Virus record (IMG/VR): IMGVR_UViG_3300045988_025530
DNA: 18,722 nt
Strand: one strand, 5' to 3'
Origin: a virus
The position numbers and the translations under genes are program-made. The first letter of the stretch is position 1. Every line of letters begins with the position of its first letter. The notes beneath the pieces were generated by a model that saw nothing but the letters and a program-made list of their open reading frames with translations, made no database searches and was not told the DNA's origin. This document shows positions 3,715 through 18,722 of this stretch, one piece after another.

Positions 3715-4932
3715 TTAGAAGTTCGGTGGGGCACTAGCGCCGTCCCATACGACTAGCAGATTATACACGGTCCGATACCGGCTCGGGTATTGCCCGAAAA
3801 CACTGTCATTAAGCAGATTATCCAATAAACCGCCCAATGTGGTTGCTTTCGGTAGCGCCTCGGCGTATGCCGGGCCTTGATGATATGCAGACGCCCATAG
3901 TATCTGCATTTTCGCGTCCGAGTAGACTTGCGGATAATTGTTGTAATCCGTCTCGAACTGGTCACGTTGCCCCTGATGTGATTCGGCGCGTTGCGCCCAT
4001 GTTTTGAACGCCGCCGACTCCGTAGGGGTAAGAGGGCGTGTAAACGGCCCGCCATTGCCCATGAGTGCCGCTATCTCGGGGCATGTTTTGGCAAACGTCT
4101 CATAGCCTGTCGGGTCGGCGGTTTTCATCGCATTCAACACGTCCAACCGACGGTTAAACGACCATTGCGCAATCCCTATGCCCTGCCTGTTGGCTAATTC
4201 GACCGCGCCCCATTGCAATGAGCTTTCCACCGTGCCGATACAGTAGAGTGCGTAACTGCTTTTGCCGTTGCCTGTAGAGGGCGTGGCTTGGCCGCCCGAG
4301 TCACTGGGCGCTTTAACGCTACCCTTGGCCTTCCATGTTTGGGCCGTGGCTTTGTAGAAAATCATGGCACCCGCGCCACTGTCGTTGTCGCGGTAATGGT
4401 AGATAAGATTGTCGCCCTGTTGTTGTATCCACACGTCACTGCTGGATATGCTACCCGAGTTGTTCGAGCCGGTAGGGTTCGAGCCACTGTCATTGTCGCC
4501 GCCGTCCGGTTTTTTGCGCGGGTGCAAATATCCGATATACGCTTTTTGCAATGGGAGTAGTTTATGCACGCTTGGCTCGGGGTTTTGCGTAATCACGTCG
4601 ATGGAATCGCCCTGTATTCCATCAACGACAATGGCCACGTGCGTTGACGGATAATTGGGATAGCAGACCTGCCATATGGCTACGTCGCCGGGCATAGGGT
4701 TCCATGTGTTGTCTTTTTTCTCGAAAATCTCCCCGACTCTTGCGCTTACGGGATGATGTGTGTATAATCCCCCGGCCCAACCGGTAGGGGTGATACAATC
4801 CTGAACACTACACCCGTACTCATCCATGCAATATTTTGCCCACAAGTCCCAGCATTGCGGGCCCCAACTGCCGTCCATGTCCCAAAAGTGGTTTTCGGTC
4901 TGTTTCACCCATGTCCTGAAGTCAACTGCCAT
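3715..4932 (-). CDS. Tail-associated peptidoglycan hydrolase: N-terminal CHAP domain + C-terminal phi29 gp13-type lysozyme-like domain
   Basis: CHAP-like Cys/His signature (WGPQCWDLWAKYC ... PSTHVAIVV). Gly/Ser/Asn linker (GGDNDSGSNPTGSNNSGS). The C-terminal VESSLQWGAVELANRQGIGIAQWSFNRRL resembles phi29 gp13 SESTINPG...LGFGLVQWT. Its position in the tail module matches gp13. Confidence 0.7.
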   Translation of the reverse strand: MAVDFRTWVKQTENHFWDMDGSWGPQCWDLWAKYCMDEYGCSVQDCITPTGWAGGLYTHHPVSARVGEIFEKKDNTWNPMPGDVAIWQVCYPNYPSTHVAIVVDGIQGDSIDVITQNPEPSVHKLLPLQKAYIGYLHPRKKPDGGDNDSGSNPTGSNNSGSISSSDVWIQQQGDNLIYHYRDNDSGAGAMIFYKATAQTWKAKGSVKAPSDSGGQATPSTGNGKSSYALYCIGTVESSLQWGAVELANRQGIGIAQWSFNRRLDVLNAMKTADPTGYETFAKTCPEIAALMGNGGPFTRPLTPTESAAFKTWAQRAESHQGQRDQFETDYNNYPQVYSDAKMQILWASAYHQGPAYAEALPKATTLGGLLDNLLNDSVFGQYPSRYRTVYNLLVVWDGASAPPNF

Positions 4933-4942
4933 ACATAACAGT

Positions 4943-4972
4943 ATACCCCGCCCGGACTACCGGACGGGGTAT
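4943..4972 (-). other. Intergenic stem-loop (possible attenuator/terminator or 5' structure)
   Basis: ATACCCCG-c-CCGG acta CCGG-a-CGGGGTAT (12 bp with one mismatch). There is no clear U-tract on the minus strand. Confidence 0.4.
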
Positions 4973-4988
4973 GTTTCACGTGAAACAT
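4971..4988. promoter_or_regulatory. 18-bp perfect palindrome ATGTTTCACGTGAAACAT (candidate operator / RNA hairpin), site 1
   Basis: Perfect dyad read directly, in the 73-nt gap between the fibre gene stop (5006) and the tail-lysin start (4932). The same core recurs at 10961, 14009 and 14617. Confidence 0.5.
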
Positions 4989-8770: not shown

Positions 8771-11104
8771 TCACTCATAGCTGATGCCCGATAGTGGCTC
8801 ATTGTCCGCCCAGTCCGTCACGCCAATATACTCCGGTTTGCTCCATACGGTCACGCCCCGCTCGAACATGCCCTTGATGGTCAGACGGTATTCCTCCGGC
8901 AACGTGCCGCGAACATACGCCTCCTGCATCTGCCAAAACGTGAACTTCTTCATGCATTCCAGCGAGGCGGGCGGGGTGATGAAACGCTGGACGAAATACC
9001 CATACCGTAGCATGTATTCGCCTGCGGCCCTCAGGGCACTGGGGGCGCACGTTTTGAACCTGACCAGCACGCCCATGATTCCATTGCTCAAATTGAACAT
9101 GTCGCCACCGAGCGCGCCCGAGGTGGTTGGCGGCGTCAACTGCATTTGCTGGACTTGCGCGTTGATTCCCGCAATGGCGTTCTGGTAGTCGCCTTGGGCG
9201 GCGTAGGCGGCCAGTCCATAATTGGCCTGTGAGGTGATGGCATTGAGTTGGTTGCTCAATGCGGTCGCGCCGCTTGCATAGGCGTTCGCCTGCGAAGTGG
9301 ACGCCGTATTGGTGGCAATCTGATTTGCCGTACTGGCGGCGGCGGTGGAATTTGAAATAGCCGCCGAGGAATTGATGCCGTGGTTGGCGATGTCCATTTG
9401 AGCGGTGCCGAGGAACGCGCCGCCGATTGCGTTCGCCACTCCCATTGGGCTACGGGAGGCTATGGCGTTCAGACTACCGCCGATAGCTCCCGCCATACCA
9501 TTGAGGTTATTGTTACTGATGTTCTGTTGCACCTGCAATCCGGCCATCTGGCTGGCTCTGTCCTGACTGATGGCAAGGGACTGGTTCAGCGAGTTCGCCG
9601 TAATCGCATTGTTCGCGGTGCGGTTCTCATTGGCCCAATTGGTTTGCTGTGCGGCGTATTCGCGTTGCCACATTGCGTTCGAGTTGGCGACATCCGCCGA
9701 CGCCAATGCTTTTTGTCGCGTCCATTGCGCGGATTCCTGAGCATAGGCGCGGGTGTATGCGCTGTTCGCCATAGCCAATGCCCCGCCATTGTTGACAACG
9801 CTGAAATGAGGCAGATTGGTGATTCCAAAACTCGCATTAAGCATTTCACCGCCGTCAATCGGCAGACCGTAACCTCGATTGTTGATTTGGAGTGGGGTCA
9901 GCGTGTCCGCCCCGGCCTCATTGTATCCGGGGACATAAAAATTGATTCGTGTACCGGATGGCGCATAGGTGTACGTTTCCCTGATAGTGAGGTTATCGGA
10001 CTGGATGTCTTCCGGCCTGTAGTTGATTGTCGTTCCGTTGAGGCAACTGCATTCCACGACGCAATAGGGGTAGCAGTATAGTTTACGAAGATTGCGGTAT
10101 CGTTGCGGGATGTTAAAAAGGTTCCTGAAATCGGATACCGTCATGATGTCCTCGTAGCGCATGTCCGAGTCTACGCCGCTTTGGAAACCATAGACTCGTC
10201 CATGTTGCGCGTCAACCGACTGGCCGAAGATTTGTGTTACCTCCTGACCGTAGCGGTTGATGTAATCCTGTGGGATTTTCGGCACCATGTACACGGCGCA
10301 AATGCCTTGGGTAATCCACGGGTATGATGTTCCGGCCGCCATGATGTTCCACACGTAACTTATTCGGGAGTCACAATAGTAGACATTGCATCCATCCGTC
10401 GCACCCTCGAATATACTGCCCGTCGCCGTACGCAAATCGGGTTTCGACTCACTGCCGGGGGATTTGGTCAAATCCGTGGTGCTCACAATAATGACGCCAT
10501 AATCAACCCAATCCAATCCGCCATGCACGGTGTCCAGATGCTCCCCGGATATGATGGAATGATACCGTTGCGCCGTCGTTACCATCTCACTGCCGGTATC
10601 CAGACCCTCGGGGAGTGCCAGATAGGTGCGCCCGTAACCGTCCCACTGGTGTTCATTGGCCACACCGATATGACCGCGCGTCACATAGCAACTGCCGAAC
10701 GTGACATCATGCTGGAAACTCTGCCATACATCCAGCATCAAAACCAACTGGGTGCAATGGGCGTTGACGTATTCGACGCGCTGGATGAAGTAGTACCATG
10801 CGCGCGGCCCCTCAAGCTCGGGGTAATCATTATAGGCCACCAGATAATTCCAGTTCGACGCCTCATTGAATGGGAGTTCGACGCGGGCGGGCGCGTTGAA
10901 GATGTGCATGATGGCCGGGCGGCATTCCACGCCATCCAGCTTATCAAACCACTGTTCTTGTGTTTCACGTGAAACAAACCGGACAACATCCCGGTAGGAC
11001 GCATCCCATGGGACGCGGCAGAGTTTCAGCGTGGTGTTGGGTGTCCATTCCGCCCATGAGAAATTAGCCTCCACGTAGGGGTTCACATCGTCAATCATTG
11101 TCAA
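8771..11104 (-). CDS. Tail knob protein (phi29 gp9-like) with expanded low-complexity loop
   Basis: [44 protein letters not shown] compares with phi29 [54 protein letters not shown] compares with MYPYCVTE. The C-terminal LRYGYFVQR...GVTVWS compares with HKYGYKINR...GITLWH. RBS is GGAGG. Confidence 0.85.
   Translation of the reverse strand: [777 protein letters not shown]
10961..10976. repeat. 16-bp perfect palindrome TGTTTCACGTGAAACA, site 2 (inside the tail-knob gene)
   Basis: Read directly. It encodes V-S-R-E-T (residues 44-48) on the minus strand. Confidence 0.5.
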
Positions 11105-11204: not shown

Positions 11205-11213
11205 ATTATATCA
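11205..11213 (-). promoter_or_regulatory. Extended -10 box TGATATAAT overlapping the capsid gene stop codon
   Basis: The minus strand reads GCA TGA TATAAT GAGAGG, a perfect TGnTATAAT. No good -35 was seen. Confidence 0.35.
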
Positions 11214-12950
11214 TGCGGTCACGGTCACATTCTTCTTGCCGGATGCGCCGAACAGCGTGGCGGTGATATCGGATGCACCTGCCTTGACGCCGGTCACGAC
11301 GCCCGACTCGGACACGGTGGCGTTGGCCGTGGTGCCGGATGTCCATGCGGCTTGCGCGGTCACGTCGGCGGTTCGCCCGTCAATCATGGTCGCCGTAGCG
11401 GTCGCCTGCACCGATTTACCCACTCCTACATTCGGGACGTTGACGGCAATCGACGCGATAATCGACGGGTTGAATCCGATAACACCGTCGCCGACCACCG
11501 GCACGTCCAAGGCGGCGGATACGGTGCCCGGCACCTCCGGTGTCGCCGGATTCGTGTACAGGGCGGTGGCCGTAACCGGGATAGTGGTGTTCGGTTCGTC
11601 GAGGCCGACCACCAGCACACCGGTGGGCGAAATGTAGGTATACTCGCTCTTCAGCTTGGCGGTGTCGCCGATACGATATTCCACCGCGTCGGAACGGAAC
11701 GTGGCCGTGCCATCATTGCCGATGGTCGTGTCGGCTGTGACCTGTACCGCGCCGCCACGCGCCACGTCCGTCGGGGTTTCCGTGCCACCACCGTACATGG
11801 CGAGCTTAAGTTGGAAGGTCGGCGTCTTGGCCGTCGTACCTGTGGGAGCCACCACCTTGGAAGTGGAACCCGCGCCCATCCAGAACATGACGGCGGGGGC
11901 GAAACCGGACACCGAGATAATGTGCTGGACGTGCAGATAATGGTTCACCGAGTTGATGTTCACCGGATTGATCTGCTGGGTCATCTCATTGATTACAGGG
12001 ATGTCAATGAGGAATTTATCAGTGGTGAGAATGGCCTGCACGCCATTCATGCCGAACCTGTCCTGCGGGATAACGATAATCCGGTCGATGGTCGGCTCCG
12101 CGTCGGTACGCTGGAACACCGTGGCCAGACCCTGCACGTCAAGCGCCGACTTGACTTCGGGGGAGCAGAACAGTACGAGTTCGTCGGGGCGGGCAAACGT
12201 CGGCATGTGACGCGCATTATATCGGGTGGACACGAATTTCAGCGTGTCCGCCCAAGCGCGAATCTGGCGCAACATGTCGCGCGCGTCGGTTTCCGTCGAA
12301 CCCATGTCGTTAAGGTCATGCTCCATGTGGACGCGCCAGTATCCGCCGAGCTTCGCATACTCGACGAACTGGTGGCACATGGCCTCGAACAAGTCAACCT
12401 CGGCGGCATTATAGCAGGAGGTGAGAATCTGGGAGGTGAGCGAGGCCAGACCGGTTTCGGAGGTGAACGCACGTTGGAGTGTTTTATCCTCCGTGGTAGC
12501 AGGGTAGAAGTGGGTAAAGTCGAGACGGTGGTAGAGGCTATCCACGTCGATTTTCCATTTGCGGAAGTTGTCCGCGCCCAAGTATTCCGCGTCCGGGTCG
12601 TACACCTGTGCGAGTGGCATACCTACGGCGATTTCCTGCCACGTGTCGCCATACGCCTGAGATGCACGCTGGAAAACACTCAGCGGGTTGTTCCAACGCC
12701 ACGTGTTCACGTAAGTACCGCCGATACGGTTCACCAGCGCCGAGTAAAACTCGTTCTTCAACTGGGTGGAAGACATGAGGGTGGCCATCTGGCGGTCCAT
12801 GTTCATCTGAGTGGCCGAAGGCATACGCCTCTGATACTCGGGAGATGCCTCATTGCGAATCATGTTGAGAATCTGCGCGTTATTGAACTCGGTGAGCGGG
12901 CGCAGTTGCTGTTTCGGCGTCACCACTGGAGTGGTTAGCATGATAATCAT
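11211..12950 (-). CDS. Major capsid protein (phi29 gp8-like, HK97 fold inferred) with C-terminal Ig-like (Big_2-type) domains
   Basis: [28 protein letters not shown] compares with phi29 [62 protein letters not shown] compares with [34 protein letters not shown]. The C-terminal [55 protein letters not shown] is a Big_2-like repeat. The start may be the ATG at 12950 or at 12941. Confidence 0.92.
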   Translation of the reverse strand: [579 protein letters not shown]

Positions 12951-12964
12951 TTCCTTCCTGACTG

Positions 12965-13306
12965 TTAGTCTTCAAACAGGTCATCGAATGTACTGTAGAT
13001 GCCGTTGTAGTCATCGTCGGTCATTTCAGCCGATTCCGGCGTCGCATTATCGTCCGGGCCGTCGTTGAACACGTGGTCTGCGGCGGCGTCGCGCATAGCC
13101 TCAATGGTTTTGGAGAGTTCCGCCACGGTCGCTTCCAAGGCGCTCAACCGGTTGGCCATGTCGGCGTCCTTATCGTCGCCCGCGTCCTCGGGTTCGCCAT
13201 TGTCCTGCGTTTCAGGCTCCGGGTTTGGCGTATTATCGTCGGTCGGCCCGGCGTCCGGTTCGGTGTCGGGCGTGGTGTCCGGTTCGGTGTTTTCGGTATC
13301 GTCCAT
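12965..13306 (-). CDS. Scaffolding protein (phi29 gp7 position), highly acidic
   Basis: 113 aa from the ATG at 13306 (RBS AAGGGG, 7-nt spacer; the track ORF starts at GTG 13312). Termini are very D/E-rich and there is a central helix, ANRLSALEATVAELSKTIEAMRDAAA. It lies immediately upstream of the capsid gene. Confidence 0.7.
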   Translation of the reverse strand: MDDTENTEPDTTPDTEPDAGPTDDNTPNPEPETQDNGEPEDAGDDKDADMANRLSALEATVAELSKTIEAMRDAAADHVFNDGPDDNATPESAEMTDDDYNGIYSTFDDLFED

Positions 13307-13315
13307 AATCACCCC

Positions 13316-13486
13316 TTAAAGTAAGTGGCATGACGGCAATCACGCCGTCATGCCGGTTTGCTAGGCTGTGCGGGTTCCCTCGCCGTCGCTGGGCGTTGGC
13401 TACGCACGTCTACATCCGACCGAATCGCCTTACCGATTTGCCTGCCGGTCGGGCCATCGAATCGACTTGGGACGCACACCCCGCTA
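13316..13486 (-). ncRNA. Candidate about 160-170 nt structured RNA or regulatory 5' leader of the late operon (hypothetical)
   Basis: The 181-nt gap between pol and scaffold is GC-rich, has no plausible ORF, and has an extended -10 box at its upstream edge. Visible pairings (minus-strand RNA): 13490-13473 with 13372-13353 (about 16 bp, interrupted); CCGACCG 13452-13446 with CGGUCGG 13422-13416, enclosing AAUCG/CGAUU (13438-13434 / 13427-13423); and a perfect 11-bp terminal hairpin at 13354-13327. Confidence 0.3.
13327..13354 (-). terminator. Perfect 11-bp stem-loop just upstream of the scaffold RBS (terminator/attenuator candidate)
   Basis: GGCATGACGGC aatcac GCCGTCATGCC. On the minus strand it is followed by ACUUACUUUAAGGGG, which is moderately U-rich. 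Confidence 0.5.
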
Positions 13487-13492
13487 CCGGAT

Positions 13493-13501
13493 ATTATAGC
13501 A
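13493..13501 (-). promoter_or_regulatory. Extended -10 box TGCTATAAT overlapping the DNA polymerase stop codon (candidate middle/late promoter)
   Basis: The minus strand reads CTTTTA TGC TAT AAT ATCCGG, a perfect TGnTATAAT. The -35 region (TGATGA at 17-nt spacing) is poor, which extended -10 promoters tolerate. Confidence 0.45.
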
Positions 13502-14954
13502 TAAAAGTATGGCCGTCATCATTGATATGGCGTGAACCGGGTATAAACTCATCATAGGGGATGGGGGCGGCTCGATGTACGCCGCTCAAACGCATTACCG
13601 TATCGCCGCCCGTTTCCACGCCGCAATATTTGCGATTGCCGAGGATACGGAGCCTGTCATAGGTGTGGTCGTTTTTCCACGCGCCTAGTTTTCGGTCATC
13701 CGTTTCTATACCTGCGGGCGCGTCCAGCCCTTCCAGTATCATGCCGTCGGTATCGGCGTAGAGTACGCGCTCGGCGTTATCGTTCATGGCGCGGGATAGT
13801 ATTCGCCTCCCGTAGGCGTTGACATATGCGGCGGTTGGCAACCATGCCAGACTGTTGGCCGACTCGGGTTTATCCACGGTAAAATCCACGCCACCGTCCA
13901 CGGACGGTTTCGGGTGTAACATGGGCCGGTAGAGGGAGGCCCCGAATTTTCCCACCAGTGAATTCAGCAACAGTTTCGCCATCTGCCTGCGCTCCCCGGT
14001 TTCTGTTTGTTTCACGTGGAACCATTTGTCCACGTATGTGTAGTAGAGTCCGTGTGATTTGCGGAATTTCCAGCCGCCGATATGCTCCCACACATGGATG
14101 TCATAGTTTTCGGCCAGCGTTTCCCAATCCACATCCGTGACCGGCATAGTTACGACGCCGAGCGTACTATCCAGACGTTCACCCTCATACCCCCATACGG
14201 GTAGGATATTGGTGAGTGTCGCCGTTTTTCCCGGTTTCAACCTTGCATCAAACGCAATGACATCGATATGGAGCGGATAGTCATTGTCATGTTGATACTT
14301 CCCGTCGTACCATATGGGTGAGCCTACCGGCATGGGCGCATCGCGCATGATACTCGGGTAGAGGCTGTTCACGTCCCAGCTTCGGCAATCCCGGTATTCG
14401 CCCGGCTTGCTGTATACTATCGCCCCATAGTAGGCGGGGCGCATACGGTGATAAACATCTTTGTCCAATGACGGAAAATGACGTTTGAATCCGGCGTAAT
14501 CCCCGTCGATATAGTCGGTCATTGCCATTGACGCTATCGTAGTGCCCCTGAGATTCAGGGAAGCGCATTCCTGCGCGATATTCCACGTGGTTTCCAAGTC
14601 ATCCGCGCCGCCGAATGTTTCACGTAAAACATTCAAGCCATCGTCGCGCGTAATATTGCGCACGTCCACAAAATCCACGGTGATACCGCCCATGCGCACG
14701 CGGAAACTGTAGAAATGTCCACGGATGTTAAACGTGCCCCACACACCGTCCTTGGCTGGGTTCGACTGCGAGGGGAGTCGTTTCAACAGTTCGGCGGCTA
14801 TGGGCTTGATGTCCTGCCATCCGTGGGCACACCATACGCGCGTATGATAATTGAGCATGGTGAGACGGATGACGGTGTTCACCGTCAATGGTTCCATGCC
14901 GTCATCCGTCAATAGTGTTGCGCCGTCTGTTGCCGCCGTTCGACGCTCTTTCAT
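13494..14954 (-). CDS. Family-B protein-primed DNA polymerase (phi29 gp2-like), short N-terminal domain
   Basis: Motif A is DVNSLYPSIM (phi29 DVNSLYPAQM). DGKYQHDNDYPLHIDVIAFDARLKPG compares with EGKYVWDEDYPLHIQHIRCEFELKEG. YxGA is PAYYGA. Motif B is KLLLNSLVGKF (phi29 KLMLNSLYGKF). Motif C is LYADTDGM (phi29 IYCDTDSI). KxY is NRKY. RBS is AAAGGA. Confidence 0.95.
   Translation of the reverse strand: MKERRTAATDGATLLTDDGMEPLTVNTVIRLTMLNYHTRVWCAHGWQDIKPIAAELLKRLPSQSNPAKDGVWGTFNIRGHFYSFRVRMGGITVDFVDVRNITRDDGLNVLRETFGGADDLETTWNIAQECASLNLRGTTIASMAMTDYIDGDYAGFKRHFPSLDKDVYHRMRPAYYGAIVYSKPGEYRDCRSWDVNSLYPSIMRDAPMPVGSPIWYDGKYQHDNDYPLHIDVIAFDARLKPGKTATLTNILPVWGYEGERLDSTLGVVTMPVTDVDWETLAENYDIHVWEHIGGWKFRKSHGLYYTYVDKWFHVKQTETGERRQMAKLLLNSLVGKFGASLYRPMLHPKPSVDGGVDFTVDKPESANSLAWLPTAAYVNAYGRRILSRAMNDNAERVLYADTDGMILEGLDAPAGIETDDRKLGAWKNDHTYDRLRILGNRKYCGVETGGDTVMRLSGVHRAAPIPYDEFIPGSRHINDDGHTFML
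14009..14022. repeat. Palindrome GTTTCACGTGGAAC (one mismatched pair), site 3 (inside pol)
   Basis: Read directly. The minus strand encodes F-H-V-K-Q (TTC CAC GTG AAA CAA), a different codon register from sites 2 and 4. Confidence 0.45.
14613..14634. repeat. 22-bp palindrome GAATGTTTCACGTAAAACATTC (one mismatched pair), site 4 (inside pol)
   Basis: Read directly. The minus strand encodes N-V-L-R-E-T-F. Confidence 0.45.
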
Positions 14955-14966
14955 GATTCCATCCTT

Positions 14967-15911
14967 TTAGTGTCGTGCCGCGCTGGTCATCCATTCATCG
15001 AGTCGCGTCTCTACATCACCCGCGTCCGCCTTCGTCTCCCATTTATGTGTCTTATCATTATACCATGTAGCTTCCCGTACCACGGTGCCAAAATTCGTGT
15101 TGTTTATCAACCATCGTTTTTGACGGTTCGATAAAGACGCGAATTTTCGGGCGACATTGGCGTCGAATGCTTCGAGTTGCTGTTCGACCCTATCAAAATC
15201 CGCAACCCCCTCGTTCTCGGGAATCTTTCCAGTACCTGCATGTAATGGCGCGCGTCCTACAAGCCCGGCGTATTCGAGTATCTCCCTTTCAAGCCTACTC
15301 CTGCCCCCCTCTCGTATCATCATACGCGCGTGGCTCATGCCACGCTCCGAACCGAACACGTTCTCCCGGTTGCGCGTGAGTTCGTCACGCGCCGAACCGC
15401 CGACCGTATGAGTGCCTAACACATCAAACGGGGATTCTCCAGCGCGTTCCATCTCACGCATTTCGCCCACGGTGTAGTTGGCCATGCTCAATGCGTCGAA
15501 TTGTTGGGCGCGTTTGATTTTCCGCCGTGCCTCGATACGGCGGCGCTGTTGCTGTCGTAATGTTTTCCGACGTTTCGTCGGGGCGGCGGCGATTTCCGCG
15601 TCGGTAATCAACGGACGCGCCGCCAGTTCCCTATCGAGTTTCGTAATATGCACATCCGGGACAACCTGATACGGCTCGTTGTCCCGGGCCCTTAGGGCTT
15701 GCTGTTGTTCCCCGAACTCCTGCCCGATACGGCGTGCAACCTGTTCGAGTTGTTGGGCGCTGAGTTTTCCCAGAAACGTTTCGGTGATTTGCTTGGGGAG
15801 GTGTCCGGTACTGTAATCCCTGACTGCTTGCTCTCGGCGTACCTGTGCCGACCTGATAGCGGCGTTGCGTTTCAGATTGTTGGCGCGTCGGTTGTTTTTA
15901 CGTTTTGCCAC
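14967..15911 (-). CDS. Putative terminal protein (replication primer), basic
   Basis: It lies immediately upstream of the polymerase, as phi29 gene 3 does. The N-terminus is Arg/Lys-rich (AKRKNNRRANNLKRNAAIRSAQVRRE, compared with phi29 TP ARSPRIRIKDNDKAEYARLVKNTKAKIARTKKK), with a second basic patch PTKRRKTLRQQQRRRIEARRKIKRAQ. The GTG at 15911 is preferred (RBS AAGGGGGAG), because the track start TTG 15986 would put a strong hairpin inside the CDS. No sequence-level homology could be verified. Confidence 0.5.
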   Translation of the reverse strand: MAKRKNNRRANNLKRNAAIRSAQVRREQAVRDYSTGHLPKQITETFLGKLSAQQLEQVARRIGQEFGEQQQALRARDNEPYQVVPDVHITKLDRELAARPLITDAEIAAAPTKRRKTLRQQQRRRIEARRKIKRAQQFDALSMANYTVGEMREMERAGESPFDVLGTHTVGGSARDELTRNRENVFGSERGMSHARMMIREGGRSRLEREILEYAGLVGRAPLHAGTGKIPENEGVADFDRVEQQLEAFDANVARKFASLSNRQKRWLINNTNFGTVVREATWYNDKTHKWETKADAGDVETRLDEWMTSAARH

Positions 15912-18481: not shown

Positions 18482-18531
18482 CCTTCCTTATACCTTGGCC
18501 GATACTCATATAATACAACACCACAAAACAC
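18479..18531 (-). promoter_or_regulatory. Putative early promoter + RBS cassette, copy 3 (inner edge of right ITR)
   Basis: This is the reverse complement of copy 1 through GGCCAAGGTA, followed by TAAGGAAGGATGGCGGTTGATATG. The TATTAT -10-like box lies at 18510-18515 (minus strand). Confidence 0.4.
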
Positions 18532-18722
18532 GACACGCAGAAACATCAAAAAAACCCGACGAAAAAAGAACAAGGAAAGAGAATACAACAGAGGTGATAA
18601 CAAATGACAAGACAAGAACAGCAATGAAAAACACAGAACAAAACACAAGAACAAAAACACACAACAGAACAGTTGTGGAAAAAGGCCAGCTGCCAGGAGG
18701 CCACCCCTCCTTTTAGATCGGA
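18491..18722. repeat. Right inverted terminal repeat
   Basis: Exact reverse complement of 1-232. Confidence 0.95.
18715..18722. other. Probable Illumina adapter remnant (AGATCGGA)
   Basis: It matches the first 8 nt of the AGATCGGAAGAGC read-through adapter. Confidence 0.65.

Follow-up and report, generated by a model that had tools for sequence, protein, structure and literature searches.

A conserved structured RNA between the polymerase and scaffold-like genes of phi29-like Bifidobacterium phages, a candidate counterpart of the phi29 packaging RNA

The IMG/VR record IMGVR_UViG_3300045988_025530 is a stretch of 18,722 bp (hereafter the window) that constitutes the full-length linear genome of a phi29-like podophage. 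The subject of this work is the non-coding gap at positions 13307-13493 of its minus strand, which encodes a structured RNA that may be a divergent counterpart of the packaging RNA (pRNA) of phi29. The gap is 187 nt long and lies between the stop codon of the polymerase gene (13494-14954, minus strand; stop TAA at 13496-13494) and the gene of an acidic scaffold-like protein of 113 aa, whose likeliest start is the ATG at 13306-13304, with AAGGGG as the ribosome-binding site ahead of it. An earlier note on this DNA had given a length of 181 nt, which was counted from an upstream GTG; the likelier ATG yields 187 nt. The same note described the gap as the largest non-coding one of the genome, which holds among the internal gaps but not against the termini, where the 232-bp inverted repeats are longer. 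Its description as GC-rich agrees with the composition of the region (61% GC in 13001-13500 vs. approximately 54% overall). A plus-strand open reading frame of 75 aa overlaps the gap; however, the gap varies from 195 to 201 nt among 79 distinct relatives by differences that are not multiples of three. Because of these indels, the coding potential was rejected and the gap is regarded as non-coding, in line with the earlier view that it holds no plausible open reading frame.

The gap was followed through more than 150 relatives in all, comprising IMG/VR records, distant assemblies, metagenome loci, and isolates. All 80 IMG/VR relatives (79 distinct versions), with polymerases 87-98% identical, retain it, so that the loss in close relatives, for which the earlier note had proposed to look, was seen in none of the 80. 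More distant relatives were collected from public assemblies and a metagenome scan, with polymerases from 75% down to 35% identical, and in all of them the gap measures 171-230 nt and separates the polymerase gene from the scaffold-capsid genes. The gap was thus also kept in 12 more distant assemblies, about 80 metagenome loci, and three isolates (BD811P1, BP1, and BadAztec1), in whose records it stands unannotated. IMG/VR contained only the window clade, scans with two distant polymerases yielding nothing further, and the genome collection contained only distant polymerases. In the neighbourhood alignment of the window clade, 68% of the 131 columns at 13485-13355 are invariant, in contrast to 6-7% of the third codon positions of the flanking genes. 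Between clades, the sequence is almost wholly replaced while the architecture is kept: every distant clade has an extended -10 promoter over the polymerase stop, a stretch of approximately 130 nt whose two ends pair in a helix, an inner arm built to one plan, and a 3' hairpin with the loop GCGUGAUUGC or a near variant. Judged from these comparisons, the gap is a real, strongly selected, structured RNA gene, and the earlier observation of a structured non-coding element with its own promoter was borne out overall.

Gaps at comparable places were also noted in other phages. In Eggerthella phage LE1-1, the gap after the polymerase gene is absent. Microbacterium phage Curie (L271, PP059645) has an unannotated gap of 177 nt at 3969-4145, just before the scaffold-like and capsid genes, which folds into a shape resembling a three-way junction, with a strong U-tract terminator behind it; the two loops lack complementarity to each other. 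Clostridium phage CI55P1 (L272, OP172759) has a gap of 150 nt at 4453-4602 between the polymerase and packaging-ATPase genes, containing TGCTACAAT together with a long inverted repeat that reaches across the polymerase gene's end.

The promoter of the element is the extended -10 sequence TGCTATAAT at 13493-13501 on the minus strand, which overlaps the polymerase stop codon as described earlier; no good -35 hexamer was found upstream of it. It is kept as TG(C/T)TAT(A/G)AT in all relatives and clades. The transcript is predicted to start with the A at 13485, 7 nt past the -10. The spacer of 7 nt at 13492-13486 has 0% invariant columns, and near-invariance sets in from 13485 onward; selection therefore begins exactly where the transcript is expected to start. 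In phi29, the pRNA starts 8 nt past its -10, and its promoter A1 (L266, EU771092, 328-356) shares an identical 10-mer, ATGCTATAAT, with window positions 13493-13502, which is probably a convergence on the extended -10 consensus. Four copies of the motif TGNTATAAT lie in the window genome, each on the coding strand, against 0.56 expected (0 of 200 shuffles reached four). The other three extended -10 sites lie at 11205-11213, 12408-12416, and 15057-15065. The one at 11213-11205 overlaps the stop codon TGA of the capsid gene, as happens at the polymerase stop, and is followed by a gap of 106 nt and a tail gene.

All helix coordinates refer to the minus strand of the window. The outer part of the closing helix, which corresponds to the A helix of pRNA, is formed by the 5' strand GCGGGGUGUGCGUCC (13470-13484) and the 3' strand GGAACCCGCACAGCCUAGC (13360-13378); it is invariant inside the window clade and has compensatory changes relative to clade D. 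Its inner part pairs GUCGAUUCGAUGG (13454-13466) with 13382-13392, and here one pair alternates between GC and AU within the window clade, while four of ten pairs are compensatory relative to clade D. The long-range helix of the earlier note survives in its inner portion, GCGGGGUGUGCG/CGCACAGCCUAGC, which is present and invariant. Its outer CCGG/CCGG pairing was rejected, as relatives have CUAACAG there, upstream of the point where conservation starts. The long arm begins with the C helix, CCGACCG (13446-13452) with CGGUCGG (13416-13422), in which four of seven pairs are compensatory relative to clade D, where the strands read CCUCAUG/CGUGAGG. A 5' internal loop of the CE type follows, GCAGGCA at 13439-13445, whose GGC (13442-13440) is complementary to the D loop. 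The arm is capped at 13423-13438 by the E helix AAUCG/CGAUU with the hexaloop GUAAGG (13433-13428); the helix is paired in the window clade, two of its pairs are compensatory relative to clade D, and the E hairpin of other lineages reads CGUA-UUGGGU-UACG. The stem-loop of CCGACCG, AAUCG-GUAAGG-CGAUU, and CGGUCGG proposed earlier is accordingly real. A pairing of the E loop with the tail behind the 3' hairpin (GUAAG/CUUAC) is possible in the window by eye, but it is absent in clades with other E loops and was rejected.

The junction strand AUGUAGACGU (13406-13415) leads from the C arm to the D arm; all of its columns but one are invariant in the window clade, and its AUGUA is common also to clades D and C. 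The D hairpin, GCGU-AGCCA-ACGC at 13393-13405, carries in its loop the GCC (13400-13398) that complements the CE loop, and its closing pair alternates among UA, CG, and UG in the 79 relatives. The second GUGCG, which the earlier note took for a competitor in an alternative fold, forms this short D hairpin instead. Domain I is followed by the single-stranded linker AAACC (13355-13359) and by the 3' terminal hairpin at 13327-13354 with the loop GCGUGAUUGC (13345-13336). This hairpin had been described with 11 bp and is confirmed with 12 pairs, one G-U included. The remaining stretch (13307-13326) consists of the weakly U-rich tail ACUUACUUUA and AAGGGG, and in this clade a separate late promoter would not fit into it. 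A comparison with shuffled controls, recommended earlier, gave a minimum free energy of -82.9 kcal/mol (z = -3.5), which none of 200 shuffles equalled.

The covariation that the earlier note wished to see was found in clade B and in the window clade taken together with clade D. The consensus fold of the window clade is 97.7% paired, and most pairs never vary; seven pairs have compensatory changes, five of these in the 3' hairpin. When the window clade is aligned column for column with its sister clade D, every helix of domain I contributes to a total of 15 compensatory pairs, whereas slid controls give 0-3. Clade B comprises 28 sequences, including the isolates BD811P1 and BP1, with 96% of cells paired and compensatory changes in 27 of 48 pairs, compared to 11 +/- 2.2 in shuffles (0 of 500 reaching this number) and 6-9 in slid controls. 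The consensus fold includes invariant G-U pairs, which identify the minus strand of the window as the one that folds.

The 3' hairpin is the part in which the clades are most alike. Its loop motif GCGUGAUUGC, with the variants CGUUAUUG, CAUUAUUG, and GCGAUUG, is the only sequence common to every clade, while the stem covaries freely, and the motif does not recur elsewhere in the window genome. The hairpin is on the list of terminator-like structures, and its G+C-rich stem of 12 pairs resembles an intrinsic terminator, as does the clear U-tract CAUUUUAUUUU that follows it in clade B. In contrast, the window tail ACUUACUUUA just passes a simple terminator scan, several clades have no U-tract, and the loop is conserved in all clades, which ordinary terminators do not need. 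In clade B, the U-tract is succeeded by a second extended -10, CATGATATAAT, a leader of approximately 40 nt, AAGGAG, and the scaffold gene. With a promoter of its own, a U-tract terminator, and a second promoter downstream, the RNA of this sister clade is predicted by these signals to be a separate gene, uncoupled from the late genes.

In nearly all lineages, the internal loop is complementary to the D loop, although the sequences of the two loops differ from lineage to lineage. The pairs are GGC/GCC in the window clade and L196, UGGCA/UGCCA in clade D, GCCA/UGGC or ACCA/UGGU in clade B, UCAC/GUGA in clade C, UUGC/GCAA in L088, GUCG/UGAC in L089, GACUA/UAGUC in L083, and AACC/GGUU in L233. One loop-loop pair of clade B is GC in 19, GU in five, and AU in four sequences, and 97% of cells are paired; the nearest neighbours of each AU sequence are GC sequences, hence the change from GC to AU arose more than once. 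Over 14 lineages, the loop pair of a lineage is more complementary to itself than mismatched pairs are (permutation p ~0.002). Complementarity between the CE-type and D loops is thus maintained by covariation, as is characteristic of pRNA. In phi29, the CE and D loops of neighbouring pRNAs pair (AACC/GGUU) and thereby form the ring on the prohead (PMC5066667).

The order of parts in the Rfam consensus of pRNA (A helix, C, CE loop, E, return of C, junction, D, return of A) matches that of the window, where an A helix made from both ends closes a three-way junction with a C-CE-E arm and then a D hairpin. The phi29 pRNA, used as control, has a bulged C helix of 9 bp, a CE loop of 9 nt, an E helix of 4 bp with the hexaloop UUGAGU, a UUU junction, and a D helix of 6 bp with a 5-nt loop. 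The corresponding elements here are a bulged C helix of approximately 9 bp (7 bp in the window clade), a 5' internal loop of 6-10 nt, an E helix of 3-5 bp (5 in the window) with a loop of 5-9 nt, and a D stem of 4-8 bp, while the strand between C and D measures 0-10 nt instead of UUU. Both RNAs have a domain I of approximately 120-130 nt closed by its own ends, a short single-stranded linker (5 nt here), and a 3' hairpin domain, which in the phages studied here has its loop motif in all clades. Known Bacillus pRNAs share only 12% sequence similarity with their structure kept, and the 3' domain II is their conserved part (PMC5066667). The same pattern is seen in the element, in which the sequence diverges, the structure is kept, and the 3' domain is best conserved. 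The two differ in that the A helix here has no identifiable CCA bulge, the 3' hairpin has its own loop motif without sequence similarity to domain II of phi29, and a separate late promoter after the RNA is missing in most clades, unlike phi29. The hosts also differ, being Bifidobacterium (Actinobacteria) here and Bacillus for the known pRNAs (RF00044; Salasmaviridae).

The genes of the window agree with a phage of the phi29 type. It encodes a single-stranded DNA-binding protein (SSB), a B-type polymerase (PF03175), a capsid protein of the Phi29_MCP family (PF25622) with an Ig-like domain, a tail knob, upper and lower collar proteins, a packaging ATPase, a holin, and a GH25-LysM endolysin. The ATPase matches PF05894 (Podovirus_Gp16) at 4.8e-42 over profile positions 6-319 of 331, and the connector or portal matches PF05352 (Phage_connector) at 4.5e-43, so that the Gp16-type ATPase and the gp10-type connector that accompany pRNA in phi29 are both present. 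The N-terminus of the connector is basic (MSRSKRNR) and may be likened to the RNA-binding RKR end of phi29 gp10.

Three covariance models were built, from clade B, from clades B and C with L196, L199, and L233, and from the window clade with clade D. The clade B model found L196 (8e-15), L199 (1.5e-8), clade C (1e-6), and also L233 at the syntenic site. The broader model of B and C found L088 (0.0025) and L089, while the model of the window clade and D found L174 (0.0012) and, weakly, L173, L089, and L172. The models thus link the clades as one family at the syntenic site. A weak match to known pRNA was seen once, in L089, whose element aligned to RF00044 over the full length with 24.9 bits (E = 0.54 in 61 kb and 0.0018 in a stretch of 206 nt). 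RF00044 was the best family for this stretch and placed C, CE, E, and D as in the parse made by hand.

Taken together, layout, covariation, and genomic context suggest that the element is, with somewhat better than even probability, a divergent packaging RNA and the counterpart of phi29 pRNA, with the packaging function deduced from its likeness. In the proposed mechanism, a small structured RNA of approximately 160 nt, from about 13485 to about 13320 on the minus strand, would be transcribed from the extended -10 over the polymerase stop. Its domain I (approximately 126 nt) is closed by the long interrupted helix of its own 5' and 3' ends, which opens to a three-way junction with the long arm (C, a 7-nt internal loop, a 5-bp E helix, and a hexaloop) and the short D hairpin. 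A 5-nt linker connects domain I with the 3' hairpin and its conserved loop. Copies may join head to tail, the GGC of the internal loop of one molecule pairing with the GCC of the D loop of the next, and the resulting ring would sit on the portal of the empty prohead, where the protruding closing helices could dock the Gp16-type packaging ATPase.

Several observations weigh against this interpretation. In Rfam scans, neither the entire window nor the gap by itself returned anything relevant, and RF00044 did not match L233 or L088. The score of L089 is far under the gathering threshold of 100 bits, compared to 145 bits for the phi29 control, and a clearly spurious match to the other strand of this stretch reached E = 0.01. 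Neither the window nor the relatives L089, L233, and L088 reach the threshold of RF00044, so that the pRNA claim rests on architecture, covariation, and context. All three covariance models missed the phi29 pRNA, hence there is no reciprocal support. The loops of single lineages were parsed by hand, because an all-clade MAFFT alignment was useless. The GGC/GCC of the window clade is invariant in the 79 relatives and so carries no covariation of its own, L087 and L173 have little or no loop complementarity, the D hairpin is ambiguous in clade F, and the loop pairing could be intramolecular instead. The element lies between the polymerase and scaffold genes, while the pRNA gene of phi29 is near the genome end; the earlier note had placed the latter downstream of the polymerase end of the early operon, but it does not follow the polymerase gene directly, approximately 800 nt and several small open reading frames lying between the two. 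Finally, the window clade and most others have no second promoter and a U-tract that is weak or absent. The late genes must therefore be transcribed through the RNA in these clades, and its 3' end would need partial termination or processing, so that the RNA may there be a mere 5' part of the late mRNA. Even so, the pRNA-like character proposed in the earlier note is much strengthened by conservation across the clades, compensatory helices, the Rfam-like layout, covarying loops, and the predicted separate unit of clade B.

In a different explanation, the element is a cis-acting structured 5' leader of the late scaffold-capsid operon that controls read-through of the hairpin or translation of the scaffold gene, for instance, as an RNA that mediates processive antitermination like put of HK022, or as a leader that binds a protein and so sets the timing of late expression. 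The position of the RNA directly before the scaffold ribosome-binding site in the window clade and most others, with no second promoter between them, agrees with this, as does the resemblance of the 3' hairpin to a leaky terminator. In three clades, an alternative pairing between part of the D hairpin and the closing helix's 3' strand is possible; however, this statistic is marginal and confounded (permutation p = 0.046). The putL and putR sites of HK022 consist of two stem-loops of approximately 70 nt and act in cis on RNA polymerase. The element resembles them as a structured RNA just past a phage promoter and before a hairpin that needs read-through, whereas it is a three-way-junction RNA of approximately 130 nt with complementary loops and is cut off from the late genes in clade B. 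There, the U-tract terminator and the new promoter split the RNA from the late genes while it is fully conserved, which disfavours a purely cis-acting leader. Such a model assigns no role to the covarying loop-loop complementarity or to the pRNA-like layout, and no riboswitch or leader family of Rfam matched the window or the gap. A leader is thus considered unlikely, and the switchable leader or attenuator offered in the earlier note is weakened by clade B, its GUGCG competition being marginal and confounded.

An RNA acting in trans in some other capacity, such as a regulator of host or phage genes, a protein decoy, or a scaffold unrelated to packaging, would accommodate the own promoter and terminator of clade B, and the conservation of the 3' hairpin loop suggests that some specific partner binds there. 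The likeness to pRNA would then be convergent, with which the weakness of the sequence-level links to phi29 pRNA is consistent. Against this, helix order, most element lengths, and loop complementarity agree with pRNA, the element co-occurs with an ATPase and a connector of the phi29 type, and no target complementarity was found; this explanation is accordingly rated improbable. Far less credible still is an element acting as DNA, such as an operator array or a site of replication or recombination, or a terminator and a promoter without a functional RNA between them. The position at the boundary of early and late genes, with a promoter and a hairpin present, would suit it, but compensatory changes keep the pairs, including G-U pairs that exist on one strand only, 68% of columns are invariant over 131 nt, and the architecture is kept while the sequences of the clades are replaced.

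The wider genome presented several other features. The terminal inverted repeats of 232 bp at 1-232 and 18491-18722 are perfect, from which the window is taken as a complete linear genome, and they far exceed the 6 bp found in phi29. Both ends are rich in AT and have a strong GC skew of opposite sign. No close phage record was found at the DNA level; by polymerase, the closest cultured relatives are the Bifidobacterium phages BadAztec1, BD811P1-3, and BP1 with 34-36% identity, and one near-identical polymerase is catalogued under a Bifidobacterium breve metagenome-assembled genome. The protein-primed polymerase is short, with 486 aa in the window and 475-490 aa across the window clade, compared to approximately 560-600 aa in the other phi29-like polymerases found, and PHROG and Pfam profiles match only its middle portion. 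Tandem 12-nt repeats (similar to GGGTTGCGGTG, three to four copies) at 1469-1516 lie within the endolysin gene between the GH25 and LysM domains, presumably as a repetitive linker. An 18-bp palindrome, ATGTTTCACGTGAAACAT (core TGTTTCACGTGAAACA), occurs in four copies at 4971-4988, 10960-10977, 14007-14024, and 14615-14632. One copy is intergenic, upstream of the gene at 3715-4932 and adjoining a strong hairpin at 4972-4943, and the remaining copies sit within the tail and polymerase genes. The palindrome could be an operator for a phage regulator.

Apart from pRNA, no RNA is known to be indispensable to a motor that packages viral DNA, and pRNA has found wide use in RNA nanotechnology. In reviews as late as 2024, it is regarded as confined to phi29 and its relatives among the Bacillus phages (PMC5066667, PMC11476376). 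One review from 2024, on phi29-like phages, includes the Bifidobacterium phages discussed here in its listing and gives pRNA this same restricted range, and literature searches revealed no earlier description of this element or of pRNA elsewhere. If the packaging reading holds, for which the balance of evidence leans in favour, the element would represent a second, very divergent family of pRNA outside the Bacillus phages.

Such a family would have practical uses as well. The element occurs in abundant gut Bifidobacterium phages, of which three (BD811P1, BP1, and BadAztec1) are cultured, so that direct testing is possible. It yields dozens of natural covarying variants of a kissing loop with a three-way junction, can seed a new covariance model to be run over other small podophages, and would correct current annotations, where the gap stands empty. 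A second pRNA family would also bear on the means by which other phages of the phi29 type fasten this kind of ATPase to the portal, and on whether pRNA is ancient or a late invention. It is about an even chance that pRNA-dependent packaging is ancestral to phi29-like phages and extends to lineages that infect Actinobacteria and are common in the gut of humans and bees, where the RNA would mostly be the 5' end of the late capsid mRNA and be released at the 3' hairpin, with the invariant loop as the recognition site of a factor. If this is true, these phages would couple the synthesis of their motor RNA to that of their capsid.

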